A stretch of 64,000 bases of DNA from Kondoa subrosea. Taxonomy: Eukaryota. Positions 3-38,773 of this stretch are shown one piece after another (positions within the stretch are counted from its first letter, which is position 1; every line of letters starts with the position of its first letter). Where the stretch lies: positions 2,303,060-2,367,059 of the forward strand of contig BCIN01000003.1 in the NCBI GenBank assembly GCA_039545335.1, read 5' to 3'. The notes beneath the pieces are model-generated. The model did no database searches. It saw only the letters and a program-made list of their open reading frames with translations, and was not told the origin of the DNA. The position numbers and the translations under genes were made by a program.

Positions 3-815
3 CCGGATTATAGACCAAAAAGGACTCCTTTACCTGCCAAACTAAAACTTCACAAGCGTTTAGATAGCGAGGAAAAGGGATGTATTGAAGAATATCGATC
101 CATGGTTGGCGAATTGCAGCATGCTGCTCGTTGGTCAAAACCTGAAATAGCTTTTGCTGCATCGCTTCTCGGACAATTCTCAGCAGATCCTAGTATTCAT
201 CATATGAAGGCTGCTGAACATGTCTTCCGCTATCTCTCCGGCAGTCTGAACAGTGGTTTAGTTTACAAAAGAGACGGGAATTCAGTTCCATGCATTTACA
301 CCGATGCTAGTTTCTGTGAAGATCAAGACTTGCGAAAGTCCACTTCCGGCTATTTCAACATTCTTGCTGGAGCTGCAGTAGCGTGGAAATCGCACAAACA
401 GATTGACAATGTAACATCAACAACTCAGGCGGAATTGATTGGCATGTCAGAAGGCGCAACTGAAGCAAAGGCCTGTACCATGCTGATGAACGAATTGGGA
501 ATGGGCTGGAACGGTCCAATGCCTTTCAAGGGTGATAATCAGCCGTCAATCGACCTCATATTCAACCCAATTCACCATGAGAGAACCAAACATGTCGATA
601 TTCGCTACTATTACACGCGAGATCTGCAATCTCAAGGTGTCATTGATGTTACGCATACACCAACCAACGATATGATTGCGGATATGTTGACAAAACCTTT
701 GGGCAAGCAACTTTTGAGGAAGCATGCTGCAGGATGTGGACTTGTTGGCTTAGTCGAAGGGGGAGTTCTAGAGCATGAGGAGAGCGAAGTAGATGAAGAA
801 GAGTTGGACGTATAA
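3..815 (+). CDS. pol: Copia pol C-terminus (RT connection + RNase H), 5'-partial
   Basis: Frame open from base 3; YRSMVG..., YTDASF, STTQAE, KGDNQ, HERTKHVDIRYY, ADMLTKPL; D-E-D-D catalytic residues present. Confidence 0.95.
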   Translation, partial: PDYRPKRTPLPAKLKLHKRLDSEEKGCIEEYRSMVGELQHAARWSKPEIAFAASLLGQFSADPSIHHMKAAEHVFRYLSGSLNSGLVYKRDGNSVPCIYTDASFCEDQDLRKSTSGYFNILAGAAVAWKSHKQIDNVTSTTQAELIGMSEGATEAKACTMLMNELGMGWNGPMPFKGDNQPSIDLIFNPIHHERTKHVDIRYYYTRDLQSQGVIDVTHTPTNDMIADMLTKPLGKQLLRKHAAGCGLVGLVEGGVLEHEESEVDEEELDV

Positions 816-994
816 GGTGTAGAGGGTCGACTCAATCCAAAAGTCACAAGAGTCTCATATTACTAATCAAGAGATGGAGATCCGGAATTCTGCAATCCTT
901 TCTCTTCACTGAACTATATATTGAGAAGGATTGCAGGTAAGTGTACATAATACAGACATAACTGAACTATATATTGAGAAGGATTGCAGTTACA
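766..994 (+). repeat. Putative 3' LTR of copia element A (~229 bp)
   Basis: Follows PPT; TATAA at 811; ends in CA; internal 29 bp direct repeat 908-936/961-989; starts TT rather than TG so the left boundary is uncertain. Confidence 0.6.
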
Positions 995-1838
995 GAACAT
1001 TCCTCCTCTTCATGAATGGCGGAACATCTTGTGGGTATTTCTTGAAACATCTATACTTTCCTTCTTTGTTCCCATCCTCAAAATGACCAGTTTTCTTGCA
1101 GTAATTACATTTGAGTAAAGATCTTCCATTGCGGGAATCGTTGACCCTGCCAGCTAACAGAGCTGTTGCATTCTCTTCACTCTGCCTTCTCTCGAAATCA
1201 AGAATTCTTGATTCGACTGCTAATTCAGACATTTGAGGAAGTTCGTTGACCAAGATCTCTTTCACAATAGCGCAAGATGTCGGAAGATTGGCAACAAGTA
1301 GGAACTTATAGAATAGCGTTGAGACCTTTTCATCTACTTGTTCTAAAGCGGTCTTCCTGTCTCTCATGGCTGTAATGAATTCAGATAGGGTTGAGAATTG
1401 TTCGGGTCGGCAAAAGACAAATGCGTTCATGCGCTGAAATGGTACAGATCCTCCTTTTGGCGAGAATTGTTCTTGAAGTATAGACCATGCATCATAGGAA
1501 GTAGTACAATTCTTGATGTGTACCAGCACTTGATCCGTAACATTCATTCTTATGGATGTCAACGCCAATCGATCACTTCTGCCCCATGCCTTCAGATCAA
1601 TTTCATATTGAGCAAACTTTGGATCCAATTGATCTGAGCCTTTGATATTTGAAGAAGAAGAAGAAGAGAAGATCGGCGCAGTAGGTGGTTTGATCTCTCC
1701 AAGTGCAAAGTCTTCGAGCTGGTACGTTGCCAGGTAATCGCTAATGCGAACTTTCCAATCTGAGTAGTTGGTAGCATTTAATTTCTCTTGTACTTGAAAT
1801 GGCTTATAATTTGGTCGATCGTACAAAGAGGTCGACAT
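990..1838 (-). CDS. gag: Copia Gag, truncated just after the zinc knuckle
   Basis: KLNATNYSDWK N-terminal motif, copia gag-like core (AWSILQEQF), CCHC knuckle CNYCKKTGH...C; the stop codon is supplied by element A's LTR end. Confidence 0.9.
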   Translation of the reverse strand: MSTSLYDRPNYKPFQVQEKLNATNYSDWKVRISDYLATYQLEDFALGEIKPPTAPIFSSSSSSNIKGSDQLDPKFAQYEIDLKAWGRSDRLALTSIRMNVTDQVLVHIKNCTTSYDAWSILQEQFSPKGGSVPFQRMNAFVFCRPEQFSTLSEFITAMRDRKTALEQVDEKVSTLFYKFLLVANLPTSCAIVKEILVNELPQMSELAVESRILDFERRQSEENATALLAGRVNDSRNGRSLLKCNYCKKTGHFEDGNKEGKYRCFKKYPQDVPPFMKRRNVL

Positions 1839-1986
1839 CGTAAGATTGATGTGTGAGATAGATAATATCTCAGATGTAAAGATGATACAGATAGAATTTC
1901 AAGAAATTGAGATGATATTGATCCACTCAGTTGAGCAAATTTGAGATTCAAATGAAAATTTGCTGAAGGTCAGAGGAGCGCGCCAA

Positions 1987-1997: not shown

Positions 1998-2278
1998 TGT
2001 TATTCACTGGAGTTCCTCTGATTAGAATGGATGACATTTATACACAAGCTATCTACCTGGAGTTCCTCTGATTAGAATGGATGAGGAACTCCTACCCGTA
2101 ATTCCACCTTGTGATCCTGCTTCCGTTTCATATTCCGAATTCCCGAGTCTTCCCTTATACTCCCTTATACTGAGATGAACGACAAACCTCACAGTTATGG
2201 TCAGCGCCTTCTGGCTTATTTGTATTGACCTTCACTGCCAACTAGCTAGCTACACAAGCAGCGCGTTTATCTTCAACA
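1998..2278 (-). repeat. 5' LTR of copia element B (281 bp)
   Basis: TGTT...AACA termini, duplicated GTATAAGGGA TATA-like motif, 28 bp direct repeat 2007-2034/2057-2084, adjacent PBS. Confidence 0.82.
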
Positions 2279-4695
2279 ATTATCCAGGAATGACGTCTAA
2301 GCCGAATTCAGGCAATTGCAGAAATATAGGACGCCTCCAGCATGCGGTGGCCCGAGACTTCTTCATCTTGTGAGTTGCATAGTGAGATACAGTAGTGCGA
2401 AGGACGAAGCCATGCATATTCAGATGCTGCGTCCAAAGCTTGTCAGAGGGACACAATACAACGATTCTGCCGATTCTATGCGCCCGTCTGAGTGCATCCG
2501 GATGGACATGAAGAGGTTGTCTTATCGATTGCGGACAATTCACAGCAAATTTCTGTAGAAGTCAGCAGAGTTTTTGCACCTAACGAACAAGATTTTAGAC
2601 TTAAAAGAAGCCTATTAGTATTGTTTTTTGACATTTTGCTACAGATTCTCTAATGAACGAGCTAGATTTGTGACTGAGGAGGCGAGTAAAGCAACGAGAC
2701 CAGCGAACTCTCGGTGGACCTGTAGGATTAACATAACGGTTGTTCTAGTAAGGAAGAAAACTTGCGAAGTTTAACGATGCAAACTACATGATCAATGAAA
2801 GTCGCTCAGACCCTTGTTTCCCATTGCTTTTACATGGCCAACAGCAAGCTTTTATACGAAGAACCGGATTGGGTGTGTTCTCTAATCTGCTTATGGGCAA
2901 TAAGAAGTAGTAGTCATTCGGTGAGCTGACCAGATACAATCACCGCTGTAAGTACTGTAGCGTTCCACGTCTGATGGGTCTCTCTATGAATCTAGAGAGC
3001 TTCCACCAGTTGCAAAGTAGATTAGCAGGTGAACGTGAATGCTGAAGAGCGAAGATGCAGGTGCAGGGAACAGGAAAGTGTCTGAAGGCTTTGAATTGCA
3101 AGAAAGAATGTGGAATCCGAGCAAGAGCTGTAAGAGCTGCTTGCATTGTCCAGAGTTTTTTGGAAGCGCTTTTCCAAAGATGTTTAGTCTACAGATTATT
3201 CGACCGGGTTCGTGAACCTTCATCAAAGGTTAACCGGTTCCTAAAGGACAGTGTTCTGCCCATTGAGTGAGGGTATCATACACCGAACCGTTGTTGCGAA
3301 AGCAAGACCAACGCTTAGATTGACACTTGCATGAGAGGAGAGACGAGAATTGAATTTTAAGGAGTGTCAGCGAGAGCGAGTGAGTGAATAGATCCGAGTG
3401 AGAGTGAAGAGGTTGCAGCTATCATGCCCATCCCGACACGCTCGTATAATGTTTCTTTAAGTCAATCGGATTGAAGAGTAAGATGTCGTAAAACAGGGCG
3501 AAGAAAGGTTGGTAGCGCTCACCGTACAAGTTGAAAATCTGTGCTCCTTGTCGACTCCAGATATCCGATTCTACGGCTGATGTTCCACGGCTAATGATGG
3601 GCTGACCTACCATCATTCTTCGGCACAACTAGTCCATTAAACATTTTAAAACTGTCCTTGGTCATTGAAGGATCAAAAGAGGTGGACGAACGGTAAAGCC
3701 CCTCCAGTAATGGCGTTCCAAGACCGGCTTACTCAACAGGGCGAATCTGAAAGGGATGCCGAATAGTATAGTGGAAGACACGGGCAAATAACAGTTATTT
3801 GTTAAATTGCGAGTTACTCATGAAGTTTGACTGTCGACGATCTAGACAAAGCCTGCACGGGGTACAGAAAAAAAAACCATAGGGACGATACTAGAATCAG
3901 ATCTACCACCAAGAAGGAAGGTTTGACGGAAAGAGAACACAAAAACCACGACATGCAATCTCACACTCCTGACAGTATTCGCACGCAACATAAAGAAGGC
4001 TGCTACGAAGGCTGCTGTAGGAGTCACCTTGCAACAGTGCCATCGTACGTAAAATATCTTCTGGTACCATTAATAGACAGGCTAGAAGGGTGAGGCGGAA
4101 AAATCCGCTCCATGCCGGGACCTCGCCTCAAGACCATCTTGAGCACAGAATGTTATATCACCTGGAGTCGGTAGAAGTCGCGGAAAGTATCGCTCGATCA
4201 TGTCAACAACGGATTGTTCGATAAACATATGCTTGTACGTGTGTGCGTGTCTCAGTCGAGTCTAGACGCGAATTGTGTGACTTAGCATCTTGTGTGCGAT
4301 TTTGATTCACCGCCGGATTTTGGCAGACTTTTTGGCAGACTTCTTGCGCTTGAAAAATTCTACTGTAGTCAGTCCCTTTGGCCTGCTCACGGGCAGCATA
4401 GCACAAGTAACTGATTGATTTGACTGTGCGCTGCGGTTGCATCTTTGCCGTGTTAGCTGTTCCACTCCGATAGCGGGTGCAAGCTAGAGCATTTCCCTGA
4501 TTGATCTAGTATATTCGGGATGGCCCTGTGGCTCTTCGCTCTGTAGCGGCATCGCACTTTGATCAAAGCTCATAGTATACATTCACTGATAGCGGTTAAT
4601 TTGACGATGGAATGTTTTAACACTGATGTCGCTTGGGCAAACATTGATGCCAAATGCTCAACGTAGCGCCTGGTCGACCGAGTCTTTGATTTTGA

Positions 4696-5136
4696 CTAGC
4701 GCGCGACGGCAGCTCCAGCAGCTGAGACCTGTTTCTCGCCAACTAGAACGTAATCGAAGCTGATGCTCCTCAGCTTGTTTCGAGGACTAAATGTCAGCTA
4801 CCACCCGTCCGCATCCTTGATCAATGATTTGGTGATTATGCCTGGAATTAGATCCGATCGTACGCTTCCAAGATTGCGAGAGGTTTCAGTCGATAAATTT
4901 GCGAAAGTGACCGGGACATCGCCAAGCCATTGCGTTGCTTCTTCAACCTTGCCCGATGCTACATGCTTGAATACGTCGCAATCAACCTCAAGCCCCAATG
5001 CTTTGATGCGAGACTCTTCGAATAGATTTTTATGACCAATAATGAGATGCGCGGCAGGAGTGAAAGCTGCCTTCTTTGCAAAGGTAAGGGTAGTCATAGT
5101 GCGAGCTGAATATTTGTTGGTGGTGAACTTGAACAT
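4696..5136 (-). pseudogene. Truncated duplicate of the aminopeptidase 5' end (exon 1, diverged intron, part of exon 2)
   Basis: Exon 1 identical to 11875-12206; TAG at 4698-4696; no catalytic domain follows. Confidence 0.8.
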
Positions 5137-5238
5137 ACCTATAGCGCTATTGCATGACGTTGACCCAACACCACGAATGAAATGCGCATGAGTTACGACA
5201 AAGACAGACGCAGTGCATCCAGTCGTCACGAGCTCGTA
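4699..5238 (-). repeat. Left arm of inverted repeat (copy of 11772-12316)
   Basis: 4805-5182 is the exact reverse complement of 11829-12206 (378 bp); flanks align with mismatches and indels. Confidence 0.97.
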
Positions 5239-5854
5239 TTGACTTAACATTCCTGGTGATGGGCCCGGTCCATACCGCGAAGCTAAAAAGTAATTGGTCA
5301 GACCTGCACATGATGATGTGAACTCATCTACCCTTCGGGAAGCTACGACATATGCTCCGTCAGCCCTATACTGCATTGAGCTCCGCCAGCGAGAACTGCT
5401 CCGGTCCTTATACAAAGCAGACCACCAAAAACCCGATCAGATATCTGTCCAGTTTTGCTGTTAGCATTGATGCCGAATGCTTTCGCAGAAGCAGACATGT
5501 AAGAAACGTTCGCTTTGACTGATCCAGTATATCCAACCAAGCCTTTGAGAGCTCCGCTGGCACAGCTTCGCATCATGACGCTCATGTATGCGAGTCCTCT
5601 TGATTGTGTGCCATAATCAAGCTCAATCCGACAGCTGTTCTGCTTTCATCTGCAGGTAAGATGGCTGCATCGATAGCTCGCCTGTGGCCCATTCCGCTGA
5701 AGTAGCTGAAAGCAGCAATATCTGTGCGCAGATTGTACAGATGAGAAGGACACAAGGCCAAATGTCGACACATTGCTTCGCCATGCAGCTCTGAGCCACT
5801 GACAGTCAGATTCCGGGCGGTCGTCGTTTCACCAAAACCACCGAGAACTTTGGG

Positions 5855-7512
5855 ATGAGCGTTTTTGAACCCATTGGTCAGTTCGGTCGCGCCTAAATCA
5901 CAGCACATACTGACTCGAATGGGTAGTCCTGCCATTCTTGGCTCCGAAGTTTCATCAGCCAGGCAAATCATCTGGCATTACAGGTCGGAAAATTTGTTCC
6001 TGTTGCTTTAACGAAGGCTGATGCCTTCGAGATACAGCTCCAGCTACAAAAACCATTTTTCAGGCCGGTCCAGCTTTCTTGGGTCACGCACGAAGAGTTG
6101 TTGGGAACCGTACATTCGAACAAGATGATCAAATTGAAGCAGATCATGAATCTCGTCATGGCACTCCTGTCGACACCGGCAGCGATGACGAAGATCCAGT
6201 AGAGAGTGAACCAGAATCGGCAGCCTTGCTCAACTTGGATCCAAAAGAGTGGAAGGTGAGCTCTCATATGTTGCATCTATGGCTTCTCAAGTGCAAGTTT
6301 CCTGTAGCAACAAGATCACTATGCTGTGCTTGGTCTCTCAAATCTTCGCTGGAGAGCTACCCAAGGTCAAATCAAAAAGGCCCATCGCAAGAAAGTTTTG
6401 AAGCACCATCCTGACAAGAAGGCATCTCAAGCACATGACGCCAACGACGATTCGTTCTTCAAGTGCATTGCTAAAGCCCATGAAATCCTGTCTAACAAGA
6501 CGAAGAGACGTCAGTTTGATTCGGTTGATCCAGCCATTGATAATGAAGACTTCCCCCACAAAACGATTAAACCGGAACAGTTCTTTGCGGCCTGGGGGCC
6601 AGTCTTTGCTCGCGAATGTCGTTTCGGTGAAGACCCTTCAAAAGCGCCTCAACTTGGTGACATCAACAGCAGCAAAGCTCACGTCGAAGGTTTCTATGAT
6701 TACTGGTACAACTTCCAATCTTGGAGGAGCTTTGAATACGACGATAAAGAGGTCAACGAAGGATCAGACAGGTATTTGCATTGTGCCGCCGCTTGACGCC
6801 GACTTATGGCATAATCTAGTCGCGACGACAAACGGTACGCCGAGAAGAAGAACAAGTCTGAACGCGCTCGAAAAAAGAAGGAGGACAACACTCGCCTACG
6901 AACGATTGTCGATTCCGCTTTGGCTACCGATCCTCGTATCAAGAAGTTCAAGCAAGAAGAAAAGGCTGCAAGAGATGCCAAGCGCAAGCCTAAAGCTGCT
7001 GAAGCGGTCAAGGTGGATCCTAGGAAAAAGGCAGAAGAAGAGAAAGCTGCCGCTGCGGAAGCACAAAAGAAATCTGCTGATGAAAAGGTTCGTTACATCA
7101 TAGACCAATCAGCTTGTTGCGAACTGGAATTGTCCTGCTTCAGGTGGCTCGAGATGCTGCAAAGAAGACAAAAGAAGCTGCCAAGAAGAATCTCAAGCGA
7201 GACAAAAAAGCAGTAAGTTAGGCTCCCTCTACCTGTGGCTGAATTCACCTATGATCTCTGTTTGTGCGATGACAGATTGCAGCTCAGGTCACCACTCTCA
7301 ATTACTTCTACTTGCCGGGTCAACCAGTTCCTGCTCTCTCGGTGGAGGGGTATTTGACTGAGCTCGATCGAATTCTTGACGCCCAGGAACTTGAAGATGT
7401 TGCTACCTTACGGGCTGAGACGGATAAGTCAAAAGACGACGGGGCAAAAGTCAAAGCTGCACTTGCACAGGCTGGCGCCGCTAAAGGTGTGGAACTAAAA
7501 TACTTTGCATAA
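5855..7512 (+). CDS. ZUO1: Zuotin, ribosome-associated J-domain protein (spliced)
   Basis: AGPAFLGHARR..RTFEQ N-terminus, J domain with HHPDK, FYDYWYNFQSWRSFEY, DPRIKKFKQEEK; GT-AG introns. Confidence 0.95.
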
Positions 7513-7513
7513 A

Positions 7514-10500
7514 TCAATTTAGATACTTTCTGCATGTCGGTGCTCCGCAAAGGCATGGAATCTGCGCATACATATGAGCAGGACATAAAAATATTGTCTC
7601 CACCTCGCACCTTTAGCTCTTCGGCTTCGGAAGCAAACTTGTAGTCTACGATCGGTCAATTAGCAATGATCTAGGTCGCATGACTATCTCACCATATGTT
7701 ATCTCTTCGCCCGGACTGATGACTGCGTTGACAGATGGATTAGCTCGACAGACTAGAACAGATAGCGCAACTTACGTTGCCGGGCATAGATGACAATTTT
7801 CTTGTTGCCTTGAATCGTGATAATTTTAGCTATGCAATTGGGATTGCAGGAGTGATTAATGAGTCGACTATTCGACAGTCTCAGCAATAGACAACTCAGT
7901 ACAGAATCTTGCATACCTCATACTGCCTTTCTTAGTTGCATCCACTACCCAATCATCATCGACTCGGAAGAGGTACGAGCTACCGATGCCCATGCGTTCG
8001 TAATTCTTCTCTCTGCGATCGGCGATTTGTTGCCTGTGCATTCTGATCAGCACGATCGACGAGGACTGACGAGGTTGTGGCACCTGATGAGTTCCCCAAC
8101 GTATTCTACTATTAGGTCGCCAGGTGGTATCGCTTCCATAGCATAGAGTCCTGATATCGGACGTAAGTAAGCTTAATGATCGATAGAAACCGTACGCTCA
8201 CCCCAGTCGTCTGGATTCATAAAAATTAATTTAAAGGTCGACCGCAAAGGTGAGCGAGAACTCACGGATAGGACTTCTAGCAAATTTGAGTTGCTTCTTT
8301 CGGACCCTCAACTGATTGAATTTCAGCACATCTGTGTCACTAGCTGCTGCTTTGCGTTGCTGCTCAATGCCGTGGACTAGTGCTCTGGTTGAGGCACGAG
8401 CATTGCGCGACACAGAGATTGACGAATTGGCGTTGCTAACATCCACCATGGCTCGATTGCGCTGCGGAAGATAGGACGATTTCTGAGCAGCTGCAATTTT
8501 ATAGTATCCTTCGGTTCGAGCGCTGCCAGTTTGATGCGGCCCCTCGTCGGCTTGCGCGTCGACTCCAATAGCAGGTGTCCTCGAGGTTGCGCTTTGAACG
8601 CGCAGTCGCTCGATTGCCATGCGCAGAAAATACAAATCCTCTTCGTCGCTAGCCAGGCCGCATTCGAAAGGGTCGTTCTCAAGTCGATGAGCTTTGTTCT
8701 GGTTTCGGGCCGGGACAATTTGCTTGGAAGTGATGATACTAGAAGCTGGAAGCAAGCTGGCGGACAGAGGCACTTGCAATCGAGCTTGGACGGGCGCCGC
8801 GGATGGCTGCTTGACCGGCTCATCTTCGCCTTCGCTACTAGTATAGTCAATCTTCCGCAGCTTTGCTGGTTTTCTGCGGATGGCTTGATCGACCGGATCC
8901 TTCTGCGCCGCTTCAATGGCACGATTGAGTGCATCATCATCGATAGGTTGATTGCTGCGCGCAGCTGCCTTTACGGACAGCAGAGACGAATTCTCTGCGA
9001 TCTCCTCTTCGGACTGCTCTTGCTCGGAGGAGTCCAGATCCATTGACACCGCTGGACGTGTATCGGTTTTGCCGGCAATTGATATTTCACGCCGTATTGA
9101 GGAAGTACCAGAAGCTAAATCCTCGTCACCCATTGATTCTGAAAAGATAGATTCCGAGTCAGCTCGAAGGGATGAGTCGTCTGTCCAAGATCGCCGCGGT
9201 AAGGGATGTTTGCCCTTGCCATGCGAGTCGTGTCGTTTCAAAGTATTGCCCTGCGAATGAGGAGATTGAGATACCCTGCCAGATCGTTGCGGCGAACCGA
9301 CCTGGGGAAGGTCTGAAGATCGGTGTCGAGCGAAAGATGGCAACTTCACTTTTCCGCCGATCTGCAGTTGATTCGAAGATGAAGCCCCTCCTTCCTCGTT
9401 CTTGACCGCTCCGTCAGCGGGAACCATCATCGGGGTTGATGAAACCGTATTGACAAGCACAGAAGTAGCCGAAGCCGGATTAGATTTGGAAGCCTTCTTC
9501 TGGTCGAGGTATTGTTGCACCACTGGCGGCGCGAAGCGATGCAATAAGTCACGCTGAAAAGCTTCTCGTAATTCACCGATGATTAAGTGGCAGGCTGTGT
9601 CGATCGCTTGAGCTTTATTCTGCTCTGGCGTCATTGATGGTCCTTGGTCCCAGCGGCTCGTCCGTCCATTGTGTAGCTTCAGCGCCAGTGGCATATTACC
9701 AAACAACTTTCTGTCCATCACAAGATGGCAACGTCCTGCGGCTTCTGAACTGTCAAAAAGTATGTACCACGTTTCGGCATTTTGAAGAACCTGGTACGAC
9801 CAAGCAGCACGTCAGCTGAAGAGAAGCTAGCTGCAACATACATTATACCTTGCTTGGCAGAAAGTCTTTGAAATGCTCGCGAAGCTGCCTCTCAATCATA
9901 TAGCCACTACCCGGCGCTTTTAACAGAGTACTGTCCATTTTGCTGATCGATATATAGCCAAAAGTATTCGACCGTAGTTGGAACTCGACATTTGCCAACG
10001 GCTCTGCGCTAGTAGAAGGTGAAAGCATCTGCAAGTGCCCATCTTGAGACATTCCCGGGGTTGCGCGCATATCTTGCTTCGTTTTCGAGGTCCCAACGGC
10101 GCTTCTAGGGTAGAAGACCTTATCCGCTTCTCTCCGCTTCGACACGTCGGTATCGTCTGTGTCATCTTCCGAGGAAGAATCGGAGTAATACCTGTTGTGG
10201 ATATCGGAACTTCTATTTGAAGAAGGCAGCCGCGTCTGCAAACGAGATTGGGAAGATTGTAGTTTAGGCACATTTGGCGACACATGAGGCATGGGCCCAT
10301 CCGTCGTTTTCTTCCAAGGCGAAGTTCGATCTCGCATCAGTTTCGGTGCGCTTGGTATTGCAGGATCGCTACAATCTTCTTCCCGGGTGCGCTCGACTTT
10401 AGTAGCGGACGATTGATGATCTGATTCGCGAGAGACGCTACTAGAGAGTCTCTGGAGAGTGTGCTCATCGATTCTGCGCAATCTTCGGTCGGCGGAGCCC

Positions 10501-11823
10501 CTTTGTACAGAATTCGAGCAGGAGTATTTGGGTGGCGAATCAGATCGAGCGACTGACGTGGATTGAACGGTATCCGAATGATGCTTTGCTGAGTTGTCCA
10601 TGGTCACTTTGCTCTTGGCTACTTGCTTGCGAGCAGTACTTCTCCGTCGCATTTCAGCATGAAACAAAGCTTTACATCGACTGCCTTTCGGATCCATCTC
10701 GACGGTCACAATTCCTTCGCTTCCAGCAATGAGAGCGATGTTGCCAACTTTCTTCCCATTTGTTTTTGCAATTGCCTGCAGAGCAGCTGCATGCCCATCT
10801 TGACCGTGCCGAGGACAGACACGACGTCCAGCTCCCAATGAATGCAGACCTGTCTCTGAATCGACAGAATCGTCAACGAATTTGACCCAACATAGTCCAC
10901 AGCCAGCTCCGGTTGCGGGATCCATCTCAAATCTGAATTCTGCTATACGTCCGTATTGCATAAAATGCTTGTGGATTTGATCTGCTGATGTCATAGGATG
11001 GATTTTGTTCACGACGATACCGCTTGATGGTGCTGATGGTGCAGGACCAACAGAATTTCGGTCGTACTGAAAGCAGATTGAGTCATGTACTCTGCTATTC
11101 ACGGAGACGACGCACGGCGTAATGTAGCACCGTGACGTGAGTTGCGGCTCGTGCTCCGCCGCGTTGTTCTTCTGAGAGACCTTTTCTGGGATCTAAGACT
11201 GGATCTTCAAGACCTCTACCGGACACTCGTGCAACCGGCGTTTTGGATTGCTTCACGGGCGAAGGATCTAGAAGAGGATCGTAAATGATACGCCAGCTTG
11301 GCTTGAGTGTTTGCTCGCCAAAAGCGGTAGCCTTGACAGGAAGAGACAGATAGGAACCTGGCACAGGCTGGGACGATCTGTTGTCCACCGAAGCAGATCC
11401 AATTCCAGACTGACTATCATTAGAGTGTGTGGTGGAATAGTGTTCTATAGAGTGTTTCGAAGATGTCCATAATTCGACATTCGGTTTGGCTACAGGCTTC
11501 CTTGCAAATTGTATGCTTGAGATAACAGGCTTCTTGCCGCCTTGAGATGGGCGACCCTCTGTCGCGTTGCTCTTGCTTTCGCTGGAAATTTGTTCGTCTC
11601 GCTTGTCCTTTCTCTCGTACTCATCCCTACGGACTGTGTCATGATCATCGCGAACGCAGACATTGCGATGTTCAGGAGTGCTGTCTCGAGGATTGCCGGA
11701 GTAACGCGAAGAACGAGAAGTATCATAATACTGATCGCTTCCTCGAATGCCAGAATATCGGCCATCTGTACTACGAGCCTCGTGACGACTGGATGAAGTG
11801 CGTCTGTCTTTGTCGTAACTCAT
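7514..11823 (-). CDS. SET1: Histone H3K4 methyltransferase Set1 (spliced)
   Basis: [11 protein letters not shown] motif, [27 protein letters not shown] ([25 protein letters not shown]), post-[16 protein letters not shown]. Confidence 0.95.
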
Positions 11824-12316
11824 GCGCGTTTCATTCGTGGTGTTGGGTCAACGTCATGCAATAGCGCTATAGGTATGTTCAAGTTCACCACCAACAAATA
11901 TTCAGCTCGCACTATGACTACCCTTACCTTTGCAAAGAAGGCAGCTTTCACTCCTGCCGCGCATCTCATTATTGGTCATAAAAATCTATTCGAAGAGTCT
12001 CGCATCAAAGCATTGGGGCTTGAGGTTGATTGCGACGTATTCAAGCATGTAGCATCGGGCAAGGTTGAAGAAGCAACGCAATGGCTTGGCGATGTCCCGG
12101 TCACTTTCGCAAATTTATCGACTGAAACCTCTCGCAATCTTGGAAGCGTACGATCGGATCTAATTCCAGGCATAATCACCAAATCATTGATCAAGGATGC
12201 GGACGGTCGGTCTCTCGCATGTAGGTTTCGAATCTAGCTGAGGAGTAGCAGCTTCGATTACGTTCTTGTTGGCCAGCAACGAGCAGGTCTCAGCTGCTGG
12301 AGCTGCCGTCGCACGC
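11772..12316 (+). repeat. Right arm of inverted repeat (SET1 start, bidirectional promoter, aminopeptidase exon 1 to exon 2)
   Basis: Reverse complement of 4699-5238. Confidence 0.97.
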
Positions 12317-13871
12317 GCATTCCCTGCATTCAATGAGAAGGCCAAAAAACCCGCCGATCGCAAGATCAACGTCAGTTTTTCCGTTCCGAACGAGCTCACA
12401 GATGAACAGCTTTCTCATCTTTCTCGCACGGCTGTAAGTCTTTCCATTGGCGCTCGCACGCTGTTCCAGTAATCATCTGGCACAGGACGCAATCTGTTTC
12501 GCGGCTTTGCTCGTCGATAAAGTGAGAACGTCTTCGAGCTTGTCGACAGCTTCTCAAATTTCGCGCAGCCGACCAATTATCTGAACACCAGTACCTATCG
12601 TGATCAGATTAAAGAAGTTGTTGGCAAATATCCTTCTGTCAAGCTGACAATTTTTGAAGGAGAAGATCTAAGGAAAGAAGGCTTGAATGCCATTTACAAC
12701 GTTGGGAAATGTGCATCCTTTCCACCATTGATGGCCGTGCTAGAATATGAGCCTGAGCAGAAGAGTAGCGCCGAACTAGTAGCGCTCGGTAAAGCTTATA
12801 TATCTCTGAAAGTATCAATATTGCTGACAATTCTTCACGCAGTTGGCAAGGGTATTGTCTACGATTCAGGAGGTCTATCGCTCAAGGGAGGTGCCGCTAT
12901 GTGCACCATGAAAGGAGATATGGGTGGATCGGCTGCTATCCTCGCTGGATTCGAAGCACTAGTCAAAGGCAAATATCCTGGTCGACTTGCTGCTGTACTT
13001 TGTATCGGTCAGTGGTTCCAGAAATGGCCATATTGTCTCTGATTCTCTCCTCCGCAGCGGAAAACGCCATTGGTCCTTTGGCTTACAAAAATGTACGTAT
13101 CTGACATAAAAGATGTGTAAGTTTTGGTTAATCATTGGAACCAGGACGACATCATTATACCTTACAGTGGCAAGGCACGTTCGAAAGTGTTACCTCTCTT
13201 TCCTTTCCTTAGTTTGACCTCCGTTCCGCTTACAGTCGATTCTGATCAATAACACAGATGCAGAAGGTCGAGTCGTTTTGGCCGACGGTGTTGCATGGGC
13301 TACCAAGAACCTCAAACCCACCTACATGTTTGATTTTGCTACATTGACCGGTGCACAACTAGTAGCCACCGGAGCCAAACATGCCGCGATTATGGGCAAT
13401 GATGAAAAGTTGGAGCAGCTCGTTCGGAAATCAGGACAGAGTTCAGGAGACTGGACCTTCCCGATTTTATATGCTCCTCAGCTGTTGATGAAAGAGTTTG
13501 ACGCAGTCAACGCAGGTGAGCTACCCAAAAAAACGACATTGCAGCACGTAAAATTGCTTGTTTAGACATGAAGAACTCAGTCAAGGATCGTATGAACGCT
13601 CAATCAAGTTGCGCAGGTAATCTGCTCTCTAAATTTTGATGCTTCAATGCTGATTGCTCTCAGGCCACTTTATCGAAGCGTATGTACTCCTCAACAAGCG
13701 ATGCTTACCAATGCATTGACCTCTGCAAACAGTCACTTCGATGAGAATTGGAAGGGAGGGTGGGTGCATGTGGATATGGCCGGCCCGTCTTTCCAACAAG
13801 AGAGAGGCACTGGCTTTGGGGTAGCTCTTATCGTCCAGGTTGCTCATGATCTGCTTGAAACCGCCAAATGA
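11875..13871 (+). CDS. M17 leucyl aminopeptidase, NPEPL1-like (spliced)
   Basis: GKGIVYDSGG, MKGDMGG, NNTDAEGRVVLADG, DFATLTGAQ, WVHVDMAGP; alternative ATG at 11914. Confidence 0.92.
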
Positions 13872-14173: not shown

Positions 14174-14815
14174 TCATGCAGTTGACTATCCACAAACATC
14201 AGTGTCTGCCAAGCGCACGACATCAACGACAGGAAGATAGATAGCCTACCTCCTTCAAATATGAGATAAGGTTGTTGCGATCCTTGTCTTTCTTTAAACC
14301 TGCAAATGCCATCTTTGTACCTGGGATATATCTGCGCGCTGGTGTTCAGTAGCTGTGACTTGAGACCAGCTTGAATCTCACTTTTTGGGGTTTTCAAGAC
14401 TGTACTGAAAATTAGCCATTGGCTCACTCAGAGCTGATCGATGACTGACTATTCGAAGAGAGTGTTCTCGTCCCAGTGAACAGCAGCCTTCTTGTTTGCC
14501 TCTGTGTAAGAGTAGCCATCCACCGATCCGGATTGACGACCGAAAAGACCATGGAGGCTGAAAAGAGCCATCAAGATCTGACTGTGCGGGCTGCATAGAT
14601 CTCACTTGGGTCCGACTTTGTTTCCACCATCAGCTACCGTCGAAGTCAGATTCTGTCTGTGAAATGCAGCCCCGAAAACAAACCTTCGACAGTGTGGCAT
14701 TGGGCACAACGAGTTTTGAAAAGCTGTGGTAAACATGAGCATGAGAGCAGAGGTTGATGAGACGCCTGCTACATACCGAAGCGCCCTTTGAAGCGTCACC
14801 AGCTGAGAATCCCAT
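14174..14815 (-). CDS. CYC1: Cytochrome c (multi-intron)
   Basis: Spliced [42 protein letters not shown]...[27 protein letters not shown]; CxxCH heme motif. Confidence 0.95.
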
Positions 14816-16486
14816 ATTGTTTTAGTTTTGTGTTGATTTATCTAAAATCGTGGCAGATCGAAAGCAAGAGAGGAGCAAGGCAATCATCAGCTTGCTATCG
14901 TACTTGATCGTCCTGGTACTGACGAGTAGAGAGCCAAGAATCGGTGGTCGAGGTAAACGAATGGAATCAATCGAATTTTGCTGCACTCACGACCTCTAAT
15001 CTCGCCGACCCACGGAAACCTCTACGCTGTCTACAGTGATCTTCTAAAGGGAAAATTCTGATGGCTCTGCAGCTTTTTGTATGCATAATAATTAGTCCCT
15101 GCCACCTTTCGCTTGATATGGCTGCGGCGGCGATCCTGCGCCGATTAACCATGCATGGTCATACCGCGATGTTCGTCTGCTCCTGTAGCTGATAGCGTAT
15201 TCTCCCCTGCATACAGCAATTCCTCCCCTGCAGCTGCCTCTGTCACATTGATGAGCATACAACGTTCATTCAAGCAGATTGCTGAAGATCGGACAAGCAA
15301 GTAGTCGACTGGTTCTACTGGCAGTGACCGATGATGAAGAAAACGTTTATGCGCAAGCAGTCAAGTTCTGCAGTCTGCAGCTTCAACCTCGATTGCATTG
15401 AAATCCGCTGCTGTCGGGGTAAAGAAGCTCTGAACGTAAAGGAACTTCGGCAGCAAGTTGCGCGAGCCAAGGCTGGATGCAGGAAGATTCACGCTTTGCG
15501 CGTCCATCCCTCTGATAAATACGGTCAAATAACTCAACGCTGCAGCTTGCTGCCTATTTTGAACTTACAAGAGCTCATAAACTATGGTTCTGCACCGACG
15601 CCAGAGTACGAGAACGCTTTGTCATCTACGTCGACTGGGTGTCAAAGTTCGCGCACACGAGAGCGCACTTTCACCAAACATGTGTGGAATAATGCATTTT
15701 GATGAGATACGCGGTAGCAAAAAGCGTATGATCGAACAGCTACTCAAATTTCAAAAGCTTCAGACGTCTGTCGCTAACTATTCAATTATCTTGCAAGCAC
15801 TAGGAATACACATGCTCTCCCAAATCTAAAGGCTTCGTTTGCTATTGGAGCCGATTGTGTTCGCGCGAAGAGCATCATGGCTCACGTTGTCGGCGTTCGG
15901 AACGGAGTACTTCGCGCTTGGTAAACCTCATCGGCTGGCAATACCTAGAAGTCAGAACTTGCTCGTCAAGGAAAGCTACACTTCACACATCTGTCATTGA
16001 GTGACTTTTTTTAAAGCATACTGAGCAAGTTTCGGAGAGGTTGCCTTCTATGCGCAAAACGACACAGGCACATCATCGGCTTGCACATAATCACTGTGCG
16101 CATCTCTGGCATTCTATGTCATCGAGTTCAACAATGCGAGAGGCATCGACGCAAGTACAAAGTCTGTTTCTATGTAATCTTTAGTTCCGGGCCTGAATAA
16201 TGCTTTGCCTTGTTCTCTTGAACAATTGGGGCCTCTCTGCCGTCTTGCGCGTTCCTCATTTCATGTTATATCAGTCTGATCCTGATTATAGGTTGAAAAT
16301 CAATGTAATTCATTAGTGTAGTGAAAAAGTCTACCTTGCTCCCGTTCCATCAGACACTAGTGACCTCAGTTTCTAAGTCCTAAGACACTGGCTCAAGATG
16401 TACTTAATGTTAAGTGGACTTAACATCTTTCCTCGCCAGTTCCGACTTTATCTTTTTCTGTTCTTCTCTCTACTTCTCTCTTCAAA

Positions 16487-37083: not shown

Positions 37084-38773
37084 ATGGCCATTTCAGCTTT
37101 CTTCATACTCAACCTCAAGGGTGAAGTCTTGATCTCTCGAGTCTTTCGAGGCGACGTCAAGCAAGTCAAACACCTCATTTCAAGCATTGAGACATGACTG
37201 ATGTGTGATTCTTGGACAGACGCTCTGTAGCGGACATCTTCCGCATTCATGTAGTAGCAAATCCGGACGTGCGATCACCTATCATTACTTTAGGCTCTAC
37301 TTCCTTCTTTCATGTGCGACACCAGAATCTGTATTTGGCGGCTGGTTAGTCAATCTTTTGGTATGCTGTGAATCGTACTGAGATTGAGGCGTAGTCACCA
37401 AGACCAACGTTTCAGCTGCTTTAGTCTTTGAATTTTGCTATAGGGTCATTTCTATCGGTAGAAGCTATTTTGGCAAGTTAGATGAAGAGAGCGTGAAGAA
37501 CAATTTCGTTCTGATTTATGAGTTACTGGATGGTGTGTGCTCGGTTCTGAGGTCCCTTCACGGTGCTCAATCCCGGCGTCAGAAATCCTCGACTTTGGCT
37601 ACCCTCAAAATTCAGAAGCAGACACTTTGAAAATGTACATAACGACGGAAGGAGTCAAATCTGAGGCAGCAGTACGGGAAGATTCGGCAAAGATTACTAT
37701 CCAGGCAACCGGTGCTACATCCTGGCGCAAATCTGATGTCAAGTACCGCAAAAACGAAGCCTTCGTAGATGTAATTGAAACAGTCAATTTGTTGATGAGT
37801 AGCAAAGGAACAGTACTGCGCGCAGATGTGGATGGTCAAGTGCTGATGAGGGCGTACTTGAGCGGAACGCCAGAGTGTAAATTTGGGTTGAATGACAAGC
37901 TGGTGCTGGACCGCGCCGGTCAAAGTGGCAGCAAGAGGAAGCAGGCAGCAAGTACGGAAGCTGAAGGAGATCCTCAGAGCGTGGAGCTGGACGATTGTCA
38001 ATTTCACCAATGCGTCAAATTGGGTAGATTCGATTCGGATCGTACAATTTCCTTCATACCGCCTGACGGCGAATTCGAATTGATGAAGTCAGTCGCATAT
38101 CCTCGCTGCCTTCAAAATGTGTTCAATTCCTGTTCTAGGTATCGCACTACAACAAATGTCAACCTTCCATTTCGAGTGACACCGATCGTAGAAGAAATTG
38201 GTAAATCGTCGGTAGAGTATTCTATCCACGTCAAGGCCAACTTCGATGGTAAACTCAACGCAAACAATGTTGTGCTCAAAATACCCACACCTTTGAACAC
38301 AACCAAAGTAGATTGCAAAGTGCAAATTGGCAAGGCCAAATACATACCAGGCGAAAACCACATTCTTTGGAAGTACGTGCAGTTCTGTGCGAACATTACG
38401 GTGTCAAAGTAATTTATGCTGGACTAACAGAATCCCTCGATTTCAAGGCATGACTGAGACGACTTTGACTGCTGTAGCGTCCTTATCGTCTACTACGCAT
38501 CGCAAAGCGTGGTCTAGACCACCCATAAATCTCGACTTCCAGGTGCTCATGTTCACATCGTCTGGACTACTGGTTAGATTCCTCAAAGTGTTTGCAAAAG
38601 AAGGTTATTCCAGCGTGAAATGGGTCAGGTGAGGAATCCGAAGCATCAGCTGTATTGGTAGAGTGCTAAGTCTTTTCTAAGGTATCTGACCAAGGCCAAT
38701 GGCAGCTATCAAGTAGTGGGTTTCCTGCTTCGCTAATATTGCAAGCGCTCAAGACGTGTTGCAGCGCTTCTGA
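37084..38773 (+). CDS. APM4: AP-2 complex mu subunit
   Basis: [54 protein letters not shown]. Confidence 0.95.

Follow-up and report, generated by a model that had tools for sequence, protein, structure and literature searches.

We analyzed a 64,000-nucleotide stretch of DNA from Kondoa subrosea (NCBI GenBank assembly GCA_039545335.1, contig BCIN01000003.1, positions 2,303,060 to 2,367,059 of the forward strand). We refer to the whole of this stretch as the window, and positions are counted from its first nucleotide. Toward its left end, two genes, ZUO1 and SET1, lie between the arms of an inverted repeat, and the right arm contains the promoter region between SET1 and a third gene, which encodes an M17 aminopeptidase. 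An earlier note on this DNA had proposed that the segment between the arms is a flip/flop inversion cassette. Our analysis indicates that the repeat is real and that it is probably a passive relic of an old duplication.

The two genes in the cassette are ZUO1 (zuotin; 6022-7512, plus strand) and SET1 (the H3K4 methyltransferase; 7514-11823, minus strand). The first recognizable coding sequence of ZUO1 is at approximately 6022, and its stop codon is at 7510-7512. It matched the Pfam families DnaJ (4e-18) and ZUO1-like_ZHD (4.1e-20), and a further Pfam scan gave ZHD (1.4e-11) and RAC_head (4.7e-06). SET1 has several introns; its first in-frame ATG is at 11823, inside the right arm, and its stop codon is at 7514-7516. 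It matched N-SET (9.8e-17), RRM_1 (8e-05) and SET (1.8e-07), with SET_assoc below the cut-off, and a post-SET-like motif was recognized by eye at the end of the last exon. A single base separates the stop codons of these two convergent genes, so their 3' untranslated regions must overlap fully. The third gene, encoding an NPEPL1-like M17 aminopeptidase (11914-13871, plus strand), has its first exon at 11914-12205, a first intron of 46 nt with GT-AG borders at 12206-12251, and a second exon that begins at 12252. Two of its exons matched Peptidase_M17 (6.1e-28 and 5.9e-26). The ATG codons of SET1 (11823, minus strand) and of the aminopeptidase gene (11914, plus strand) are 90 bp apart, both within the right arm. 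The earlier note had named the same three genes and had placed a head-to-head SET1/aminopeptidase promoter in the repeat, in agreement with these gene models.

The left arm of the repeat is at 4699-5238 (minus orientation) and the right arm at 11772-12316 (plus orientation). Comparison of the whole window with itself by blastn (E ≤ 1e-5) gave one non-self match, 4699-5238 versus 12316-11772, with 95.2% identity over 545 columns. A repeat search of 3500-13500 resolved the same inverted pair into 502 nt at 96% identity (4731-5232 and 11779-12280) and 33 nt at 97% identity (4699-4731 and 12284-12316), and found no direct repeats in that interval. Over the entire 64 kb, the repeat search found this inverted pair as the only dispersed repeat, no other repeat of at least 60 nt and no direct repeat family of at least 60 nt. 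Within the arms there is a core, at 4805-5182 on the left (minus orientation) and 11829-12206 on the right (plus orientation). A script comparing one core with the reverse complement of the other found 378 of 378 bases equal, and the identity cannot be extended by a single base at either end. Each of 12 sampled 30-mers from the core was found exactly once per strand in the window. The distance between the arms is 6533 bp, and that between the cores is 6646 bp. The anatomy in the earlier note, an exact inverted 378-bp pair enclosing about 6.5 kb, with homology continuing to 4699/12316 and 5238/11772 through substitutions, indels and an altered intron, was thus reproduced by script, by blastn and by the segment counts given below.

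The duplicated DNA consists of single-copy gene sequence rather than a transposon, and its homology ends at the arms. Five pairs of regions outside and inside the arms, compared by blastn (word size 7, E ≤ 1), had only chance matches of 14-19 nt, which identifies the repeat as a sharply bounded 540-bp duplication. The lack of homology past the arms also rules out the remnant of a larger decayed palindrome.

We made an independent check on the repeat using k-mer contigs (Logan, de Bruijn) from two sequencing runs, X1 and X2. The runs come from one sample and one study and are possibly the source of the assembly. Contigs were placed on 2400-11828, an interval that takes in the left arm, the interior and the right arm's inner flank; to prevent double placement, the right core and outer flank were excluded. 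The contig graph is the same for either orientation of the interior; it shows copy number, not orientation. Each run gave one contig of exactly 378 nt on 4805-5182, with no bubble. The depth of this contig in X1 was 111.8, compared to 53.4 and 56 in the neighboring contigs, and in X2 it was 289.8, compared to 149.6 and 139.3. In both runs, then, the core had 2.0-2.1 times the depth of its flanks. A single 378-nt contig at twice the depth of its flanks means that there are two real copies of an identical core, not one made so by polishing. The left flanking contig (3267-4834) ends 30 nt within the core, and a 6706-nt contig covers the whole interior, with the last 30 nt of the core present at both of its ends. 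All junctions outside the core have full single-copy depth, and the two ends of the left arm, 4699 and 5238, are inside such contigs. The repeat is real and the two-copy state is true of this sample, which is probably the same as that of the assembly.

Several minor features were seen among these contigs. An X2 contig that appears as a loose end at 4699 has a tail of 24 letters, corresponding to approximately 12317-12340, that is unlike the outer flank of the right arm at two positions. This tail has no counterpart in X1, and X2 contains 0.98 of the sampled words versus 1.00 for X1; the tail may come from a minor variant, from an error branch or from another copy that has diverged further. At 3265-3296, about 30 nt break the contigs of both runs. 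X1 has contigs of 32 and 40 nt there, with depths of 130 and 77 versus approximately 55 around them, and this is a short element with more than one copy in the genome. In the 5' region of SET1, at 11134-11221, X2 breaks into one contig of 88 nt at depth 106 and two low-depth variants, at 6.1 and 4.1, that have one or two other letters. The X1 contig is unbroken there, and the break in X2 probably reflects sequencing-error branches or a rare variant. A contig joint from 4207 to 4529 was held to be spurious, as it rests on a 24-28-nt match of a 35-kb contig. No other alternative letters or indels were reported across the arm and core contigs over 2400-11828.

The two arms differ in how they are connected to the genes. 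Each contains the first 17 codons of SET1 and the 90-bp divergent promoter, followed by aminopeptidase exon 1, intron 1 and 65 nt of exon 2. The core starts 85 nt upstream of the aminopeptidase ATG, takes in all of exon 1 and ends at the first base of the intron. The right arm is joined to the body of SET1 on one side and to the rest of the aminopeptidase gene on the other. For the aminopeptidase gene we had an outside reference. A metagenome scan gave two loci, L001 and L002, out of 205 pattern matches. L001 is a 2123-nt intronless contig with a 488-aa open reading frame (ORF) and 75% protein identity over the query exon; it behaves as a spliced transcript of an ortholog would, and we used it to fix the gene model. 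L002, a distant M17 peptidase with 32% identity on a 186-kb contig, was not used. L001 aligns to the right copy over exon 1, exon 2 and past 12316. Its homology to the left copy ends at 4699. Its continuity with the body of SET1 and its match to L001 past 12316 identify the right arm as the parental copy.

The left arm has decayed. Its intron donor is changed from GT to GG. In its exon-2 stretch there are four substitutions and a deletion of 4 nt, and at these sites the right arm has the sequence of L001. All of the 16 donor/acceptor combinations tested for the left copy reach a stop codon after 98-136 aa, whereas the right copy stays open in all four of its GT-AG combinations. The 17-codon SET1 stub in the left arm reaches a stop almost immediately. 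Judged from these features of its sequence, the left arm is an inverted, shortened relic of the promoter and exon 1, truncated and not a second gene.

The named relatives of the aminopeptidase are distant. Its protein matches carry PF00883 and PF18295, and the best named relatives have approximately 41% identity (Allomyces and Trypanosoma); no Pucciniomycotina protein was among the best 120 of 242 matches. L001, at 75%, was the one close relative found. In comparison, an exon of the AP-2 mu gene in the same window (37522-38412) had its nearest named matches in Pucciniomycotina, with Mixia at 77%, rust fungi at 74-76% and Microbotryomycetes at 72-74%, and another match at 88%; it is this single protein that places the window there. 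The relatives of the aminopeptidase at about 41%, against 72-77% for AP-2 mu within Pucciniomycotina, suggest that the aminopeptidase gene may be patchily distributed in fungi. Past the aminopeptidase stop codon, positions 1700-2030 of L001 match a conserved coding region on the opposite strand at 14250-14820 of the window, with up to 97% identity over 36 aa. This extension into an opposite-strand coding match means that the transcripts of the convergent neighbors overlap in the relative too. The remainder of the window contains ordinary fungal genes, and a tRNA scan found no tRNA genes in the window.

Differences between the arms are distributed very unevenly. The inner flank has three mismatches and one indel in 57 nt, and the core has no differences in 378 nt. 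Beyond the core, the intron stretch has 14 differences in 43 nt (33%), and the exon-2 stretch has four mismatches in 67 nt (6%) in addition to its 4-nt deletion. At the divergence of the non-intron flanks (5.8%), the probability of finding no differences in 378 nt is 1.5e-10, and at the pooled divergence of 12.9% it is 2e-23. Constraint on the sequence cannot account for the identity of the core, because exon 1 is only 71.9% identical (210 of 292 positions) to L001. The arms are therefore more alike within the genome (378 of 378) than exon 1 is to its counterpart in L001, which is a single outgroup sequence. The absence of differences in the core, compared to 5-33% in the flanks and 28% between species, argues for gene conversion between the arms, and these patterns indicate that the core was probably overwritten well after the duplication. 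The earlier note had drawn recombination between the arms from the combination of diverged edges and an identical core, and the probabilities given here bear it out. The core ends one base into intron 1 on one side and 5-6 nt from the SET1 ATG on the other, with the ATG on the interior side. These tract ends would be the places where accumulated heterology now blocks conversion. Repeat-induced point (RIP)-like mutation was rejected by eye as the source of the divergence in the flanks, many of the differences being transversions.

The borders of the left arm carry a possible trace of how it arose. The hexamer TTGACT is found at 4692-4697, separated from the left arm by one nucleotide (A4698), and again on the same strand at 5239-5244, directly after the arm. 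It brackets the left arm in the manner of a target-site duplication and is absent from the borders of the right arm. Resampling of the window put the chance that such a 6-mer lies this close (1-2 nt) to both borders at 0.12-0.24%. We rejected an origin of the left arm through RNA or cDNA, as the arm keeps intron 1 and covers both sides of the divergent promoter.

We considered two routes to this structure. In the first, a 540-bp fragment would have entered, in reverse orientation, a break whose ends were staggered by 6 nt. The second would have started with a staggered-break inversion, as modeled by Ranz et al. (PMC1885836), in which the breaks were staggered by 540 nt at the promoter and by 6 nt upstream of ZUO1. 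Writing t for the 6-nt repeat and d for the duplicated segment, the intermediate would have been A-t-d'-SET1...ZUO1-t'-d-aminopeptidase, and one recombination between d' and d would then have given A-t-d'-t-ZUO1...SET1-d-aminopeptidase, as observed. Both routes would yield, and so fit, the order TTGACT, left arm, TTGACT, ZUO1, SET1, right arm. If the second route was taken, the locus already records one repeat-mediated flip. The right arm retains the two parental junctions, and the hexamer is repeated directly rather than in inverted form. With these features, the footprint of a simple staggered-break inversion would fit only with an even number of flips, or else the origin would be by insertion. 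The earlier note had listed an old staggered-break event with gene conversion among its alternatives. Of what it proposed, this fits best, and the 6-bp direct repeat at the left arm adds support to it.

Taken together, we think that the repeat is probably a passive structural relic: 540 bp would have been duplicated once, long ago, in inverted orientation, with later conversion of the core, and the result would permit occasional unregulated inversion. An extra copy of the SET1/aminopeptidase promoter and exon 1 would have been placed upstream of ZUO1, at a distance of 6.5 kb. Gene conversion within the chromosome would have overwritten the central 378 bp repeatedly since that time, a case of concerted evolution. 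Conversion and crossover share recombination intermediates, and so the 6.5-kb cassette should be able to invert occasionally. It would do so without breaking any gene, and we would expect flips to be rare and unregulated and to serve no regulatory design. The geometry is such that a crossover in the core would invert 5183-11828 and leave ZUO1, SET1 and the aminopeptidase gene intact, as the earlier note had held. The core carries just the 5' leader and exon 1 of the aminopeptidase gene; after such a crossover SET1 keeps its ATG and the inner flank, the aminopeptidase gene keeps an identical exon 1 and its own intron, and ZUO1 is untouched. The distance from the SET1 start to the repeat block at the left end of the window is approximately 9.6 kb now and would be approximately 3.0 kb if flipped, and the upstream region of ZUO1 would move in the opposite sense. 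These distances are measured to 2164, the start of the single-copy contigs, and the earlier figures of about 9.5 and 2.9 kb were about right. That the cassette is polymorphic in orientation within the species through recurrent repeat-mediated flips is a tentative suggestion, and we doubt it more than we favor it. If the cassette does flip recurrently, the direct TTGACT repeats would already record one flip.

Several observations weigh against a passive relic with a single duplication and rare flips, or limit what can be said for it. The intron stretch is 33% diverged and the exon-2 stretch beyond it only 6%; one date of duplication and one conversion tract are insufficient to give this pattern, and a mosaic of tracts or a cluster of mutations is needed. 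One end of the tract falls within 1 nt of an exon/intron junction, which is only loosely explained. The data come from one genome, in effect one sample, in which "continuing" conversion is indistinguishable from a single recent event. The evidence from the direct repeat is post hoc and concerns 6 bp, and is suggestive. The contigs, being symmetric with respect to orientation, are also consistent with flipping that may be frequent. Finally, the SET1-side promoter copy in the left arm is approximately 0.8 kb upstream of ZUO1 and points toward it, and may have a function there.

The closest precedent is the flip/flop (FF) region of Saccharomyces chromosome XIV. The FF region is a 24-kb segment with a homogenized 4-kb inverted repeat (Salzberg et al. 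2022, PMC9731477). It has been invertible for millions of years as a by-product of concerted evolution, and its many evolutionary flips stand against none in approximately 53,800 mitoses and 950 meioses (PMC9731477). In both cases a segment without MAT genes lies between inverted repeats of duplicated genes, the arms are in concerted evolution, the genes are intact in both orientations, inversion would be a by-product of homogenization, and a centromere or repeat-rich region is near. In the Kondoa window, too, the arms are more alike than orthologs are, and by geometry the genes are intact in either orientation. The systems differ in scale and in what the arms contain. The FF region has a 4-kb repeat, two intact and functional gene pairs, and both orientations across species, whereas here the repeat is 0.54 kb (0.38 kb of it identical), one arm is a truncated relic, and one orientation was seen. 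By analogy, the FF region would be a better model for the ZUO1-SET1 locus than the mating-type locus of Ogataea.

The repeat resembles the inverted duplications from staggered breaks that are coupled to inversions in Drosophila, which are 46 bp to 1.9 kb long with a median of 321 bp (Ranz et al. 2007, PMC1885836). In those cases, as here, unique gene sequence is duplicated in inverted orientation at both ends of a segment, and one copy is usually degenerate; the 540 bp found here are a typical size. In the simple model for these events, the parental junctions are split between the copies and a short second duplication is inverted (PMC1885836). Here, in contrast, both parental junctions are in one arm and the 6-bp repeat has direct orientation, so that an extra re-inversion or a plain insertion is required. 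The Drosophila duplicates also differ in having an average identity of 88% and in lacking a perfectly homogenized core.

Inversions mediated by inverted repeats are also found in humans, FLNA-EMD being one example. In recurrent human inversions and in the palindromes of the Y and X chromosomes, conversion between the arms keeps them nearly identical and the spacer inverts rarely or recurrently, with no regulatory purpose (PMC3961182, PMC3723533). The likeness is one of mechanism between very different organisms, and the human arms are kilobases to megabases long. A literature search on inverted-repeat inversions in Pucciniomycotina, in which the ZUO1-SET1 pair was not searched by name, had no such cassette among the matches listed. 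The type of locus is a known one: an inverted duplication whose arms evolve in concert and whose interior is latently invertible.

The left arm might instead have been kept because it is useful, either as an extra promoter for ZUO1 or as the source of an aminopeptidase N-terminal protein of approximately 100-136 aa, with selection and conversion together holding the core identical. The identical tract does coincide almost exactly with the functional unit formed by the promoter and exon 1. Combined with a 1-nt shift of the donor, the 4-nt deletion would return some splice forms to the parental frame (…QVSAAGAAVAR), with a stop at the end of the homology, and the intron stretch is still exactly 43 nt long despite its 14 substitutions. 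However, the canonical donor is lost, the catalytic domain is absent, and Pfam assigns no separate domain to exon 1. Conversion by itself is enough to explain the identity of the core, with no need for selection. We consider a useful left arm unlikely.

A programmed flip/flop switch, on which the earlier note had placed its interest as a position effect on SET1, is far more doubtful. According to this idea, induced recombination between the arms would put the promoter of either SET1 or ZUO1 approximately 3 kb from a silencing block of retroelements or a centromere. We regard such programmed switching as very improbable. In its particular form, an epigenetic toggle on the H3K4 methyltransferase in the style of Ogataea but without MAT genes, working through a reversible ZUO1-SET1 cassette in a Pucciniomycotina-like basidiomycete, it has just as little likelihood. 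The anatomy does parallel that of Ogataea polymorpha, in which identical inverted repeats include a non-functional truncated copy of a gene, and the left repeat is beside a centromere marked by Ty5-like long terminal repeats (LTRs) (PMC5720833). More generally, the flip/flop systems of Ogataea and Komagataella share with this locus an identical inverted repeat that contains a truncated gene copy and an arm near a retrotransposon-marked region, and inversion changes which of the segment's ends is nearer to that region (PMC5720833, PMC4238957). Those yeasts have 2-kb repeats and a 19-kb segment with MATa and MATalpha at its ends; switching is induced by nitrogen starvation, and silencing at the centromere has been demonstrated. 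None of these features was seen in the Kondoa window. Identical inverted repeats bracket a segment in the Kondoa window, and Pfam scans found no two terminal sets of MAT genes.

The retroelement neighborhood is compatible with such a switch in part. At 3-1898, copia-type gag and pol fragments are present in opposite orientations: a pol C-terminal ORF at 3-815 (plus strand) and a gag ORF at 990-1898 (minus strand). The gag ORF matched Pfam Retrotran_gag_2 (3.4e-13). The other ORF had no Pfam match, and we take it by eye to be the RNase H end of copia pol. The pol C-terminus ends at 815, and the gag ORF facing it has nowhere to continue. The repeat search found no LTR pair within the window, and the facing fragments indicate a putative nested or truncated insertion. 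To their right, at 2164-4698, there is a spacer with no recognizable gene, at single-copy depth, in which the leftmost contig starts at 2164. None of nine ORFs in the spacer matched Pfam, nor did an ORF at 4203-4505 in another scan. The left arm is 2.5 kb from the repeat boundary near 2164. The DNA is single-copy from approximately 2164, and by geometry all three genes would survive a crossover in the core, as a switch would require.

The remaining evidence goes against a switch. Pfam scans of 22 ORFs, 17 of them in the spacer and the region upstream of ZUO1, found no match among these 17 to MAT, homeodomain, HMG, alpha-box, pheromone-receptor or recombinase families; in the cassette, they found just ZUO1, SET1 and the M17 peptidase, and no MAT-type or recombinase family. 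The earlier note had itself recognized no MAT gene or recombinase. The cargo consists of two housekeeping genes, and the scans detected no regulator family. The identical core is 378 bp, compared to 2 kb in Ogataea, and about 2.5 kb of single-copy spacer plus the arm lie between the cassette and the nearest repeat. Each gene keeps its own promoter-bearing arm of approximately 0.5 kb in either orientation. One orientation, and no chromatin state, was observed. Regulated flipping, if true, would for the first time outside mating-type loci put a chromatin writer under the control of a flip/flop element, and no evidence here points that way.

Homogenization of the cores by assembly or polishing, which the earlier note had raised and by which the cores would truly differ or a single arm would exist, is rejected as next to impossible: polishing does sometimes yield identical repeats in draft assemblies, and both runs may be the assembly's own source data, but de Bruijn assembly of each run independently gave one core contig without a bubble at twice the neighboring depth, with the left-arm junctions inside full-depth contigs and no other letters reported over 2400-11828.

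With the passive relic as the preferred reading, two points follow for use of this sequence. The left arm should be flagged in annotation as a pseudo-exon and not as a second aminopeptidase gene, and the assembled orientation of 5183-11828 should be treated as provisional. The locus offers a small and clean case of an inverted duplication whose arms evolve in concert, from a fungal lineage that has been little studied, and it is accompanied by what is likely the footprint of the duplication's origin. It bears on how often inverted repeats shorter than 0.5 kb may persist and drive inversions in compact fungal genomes.

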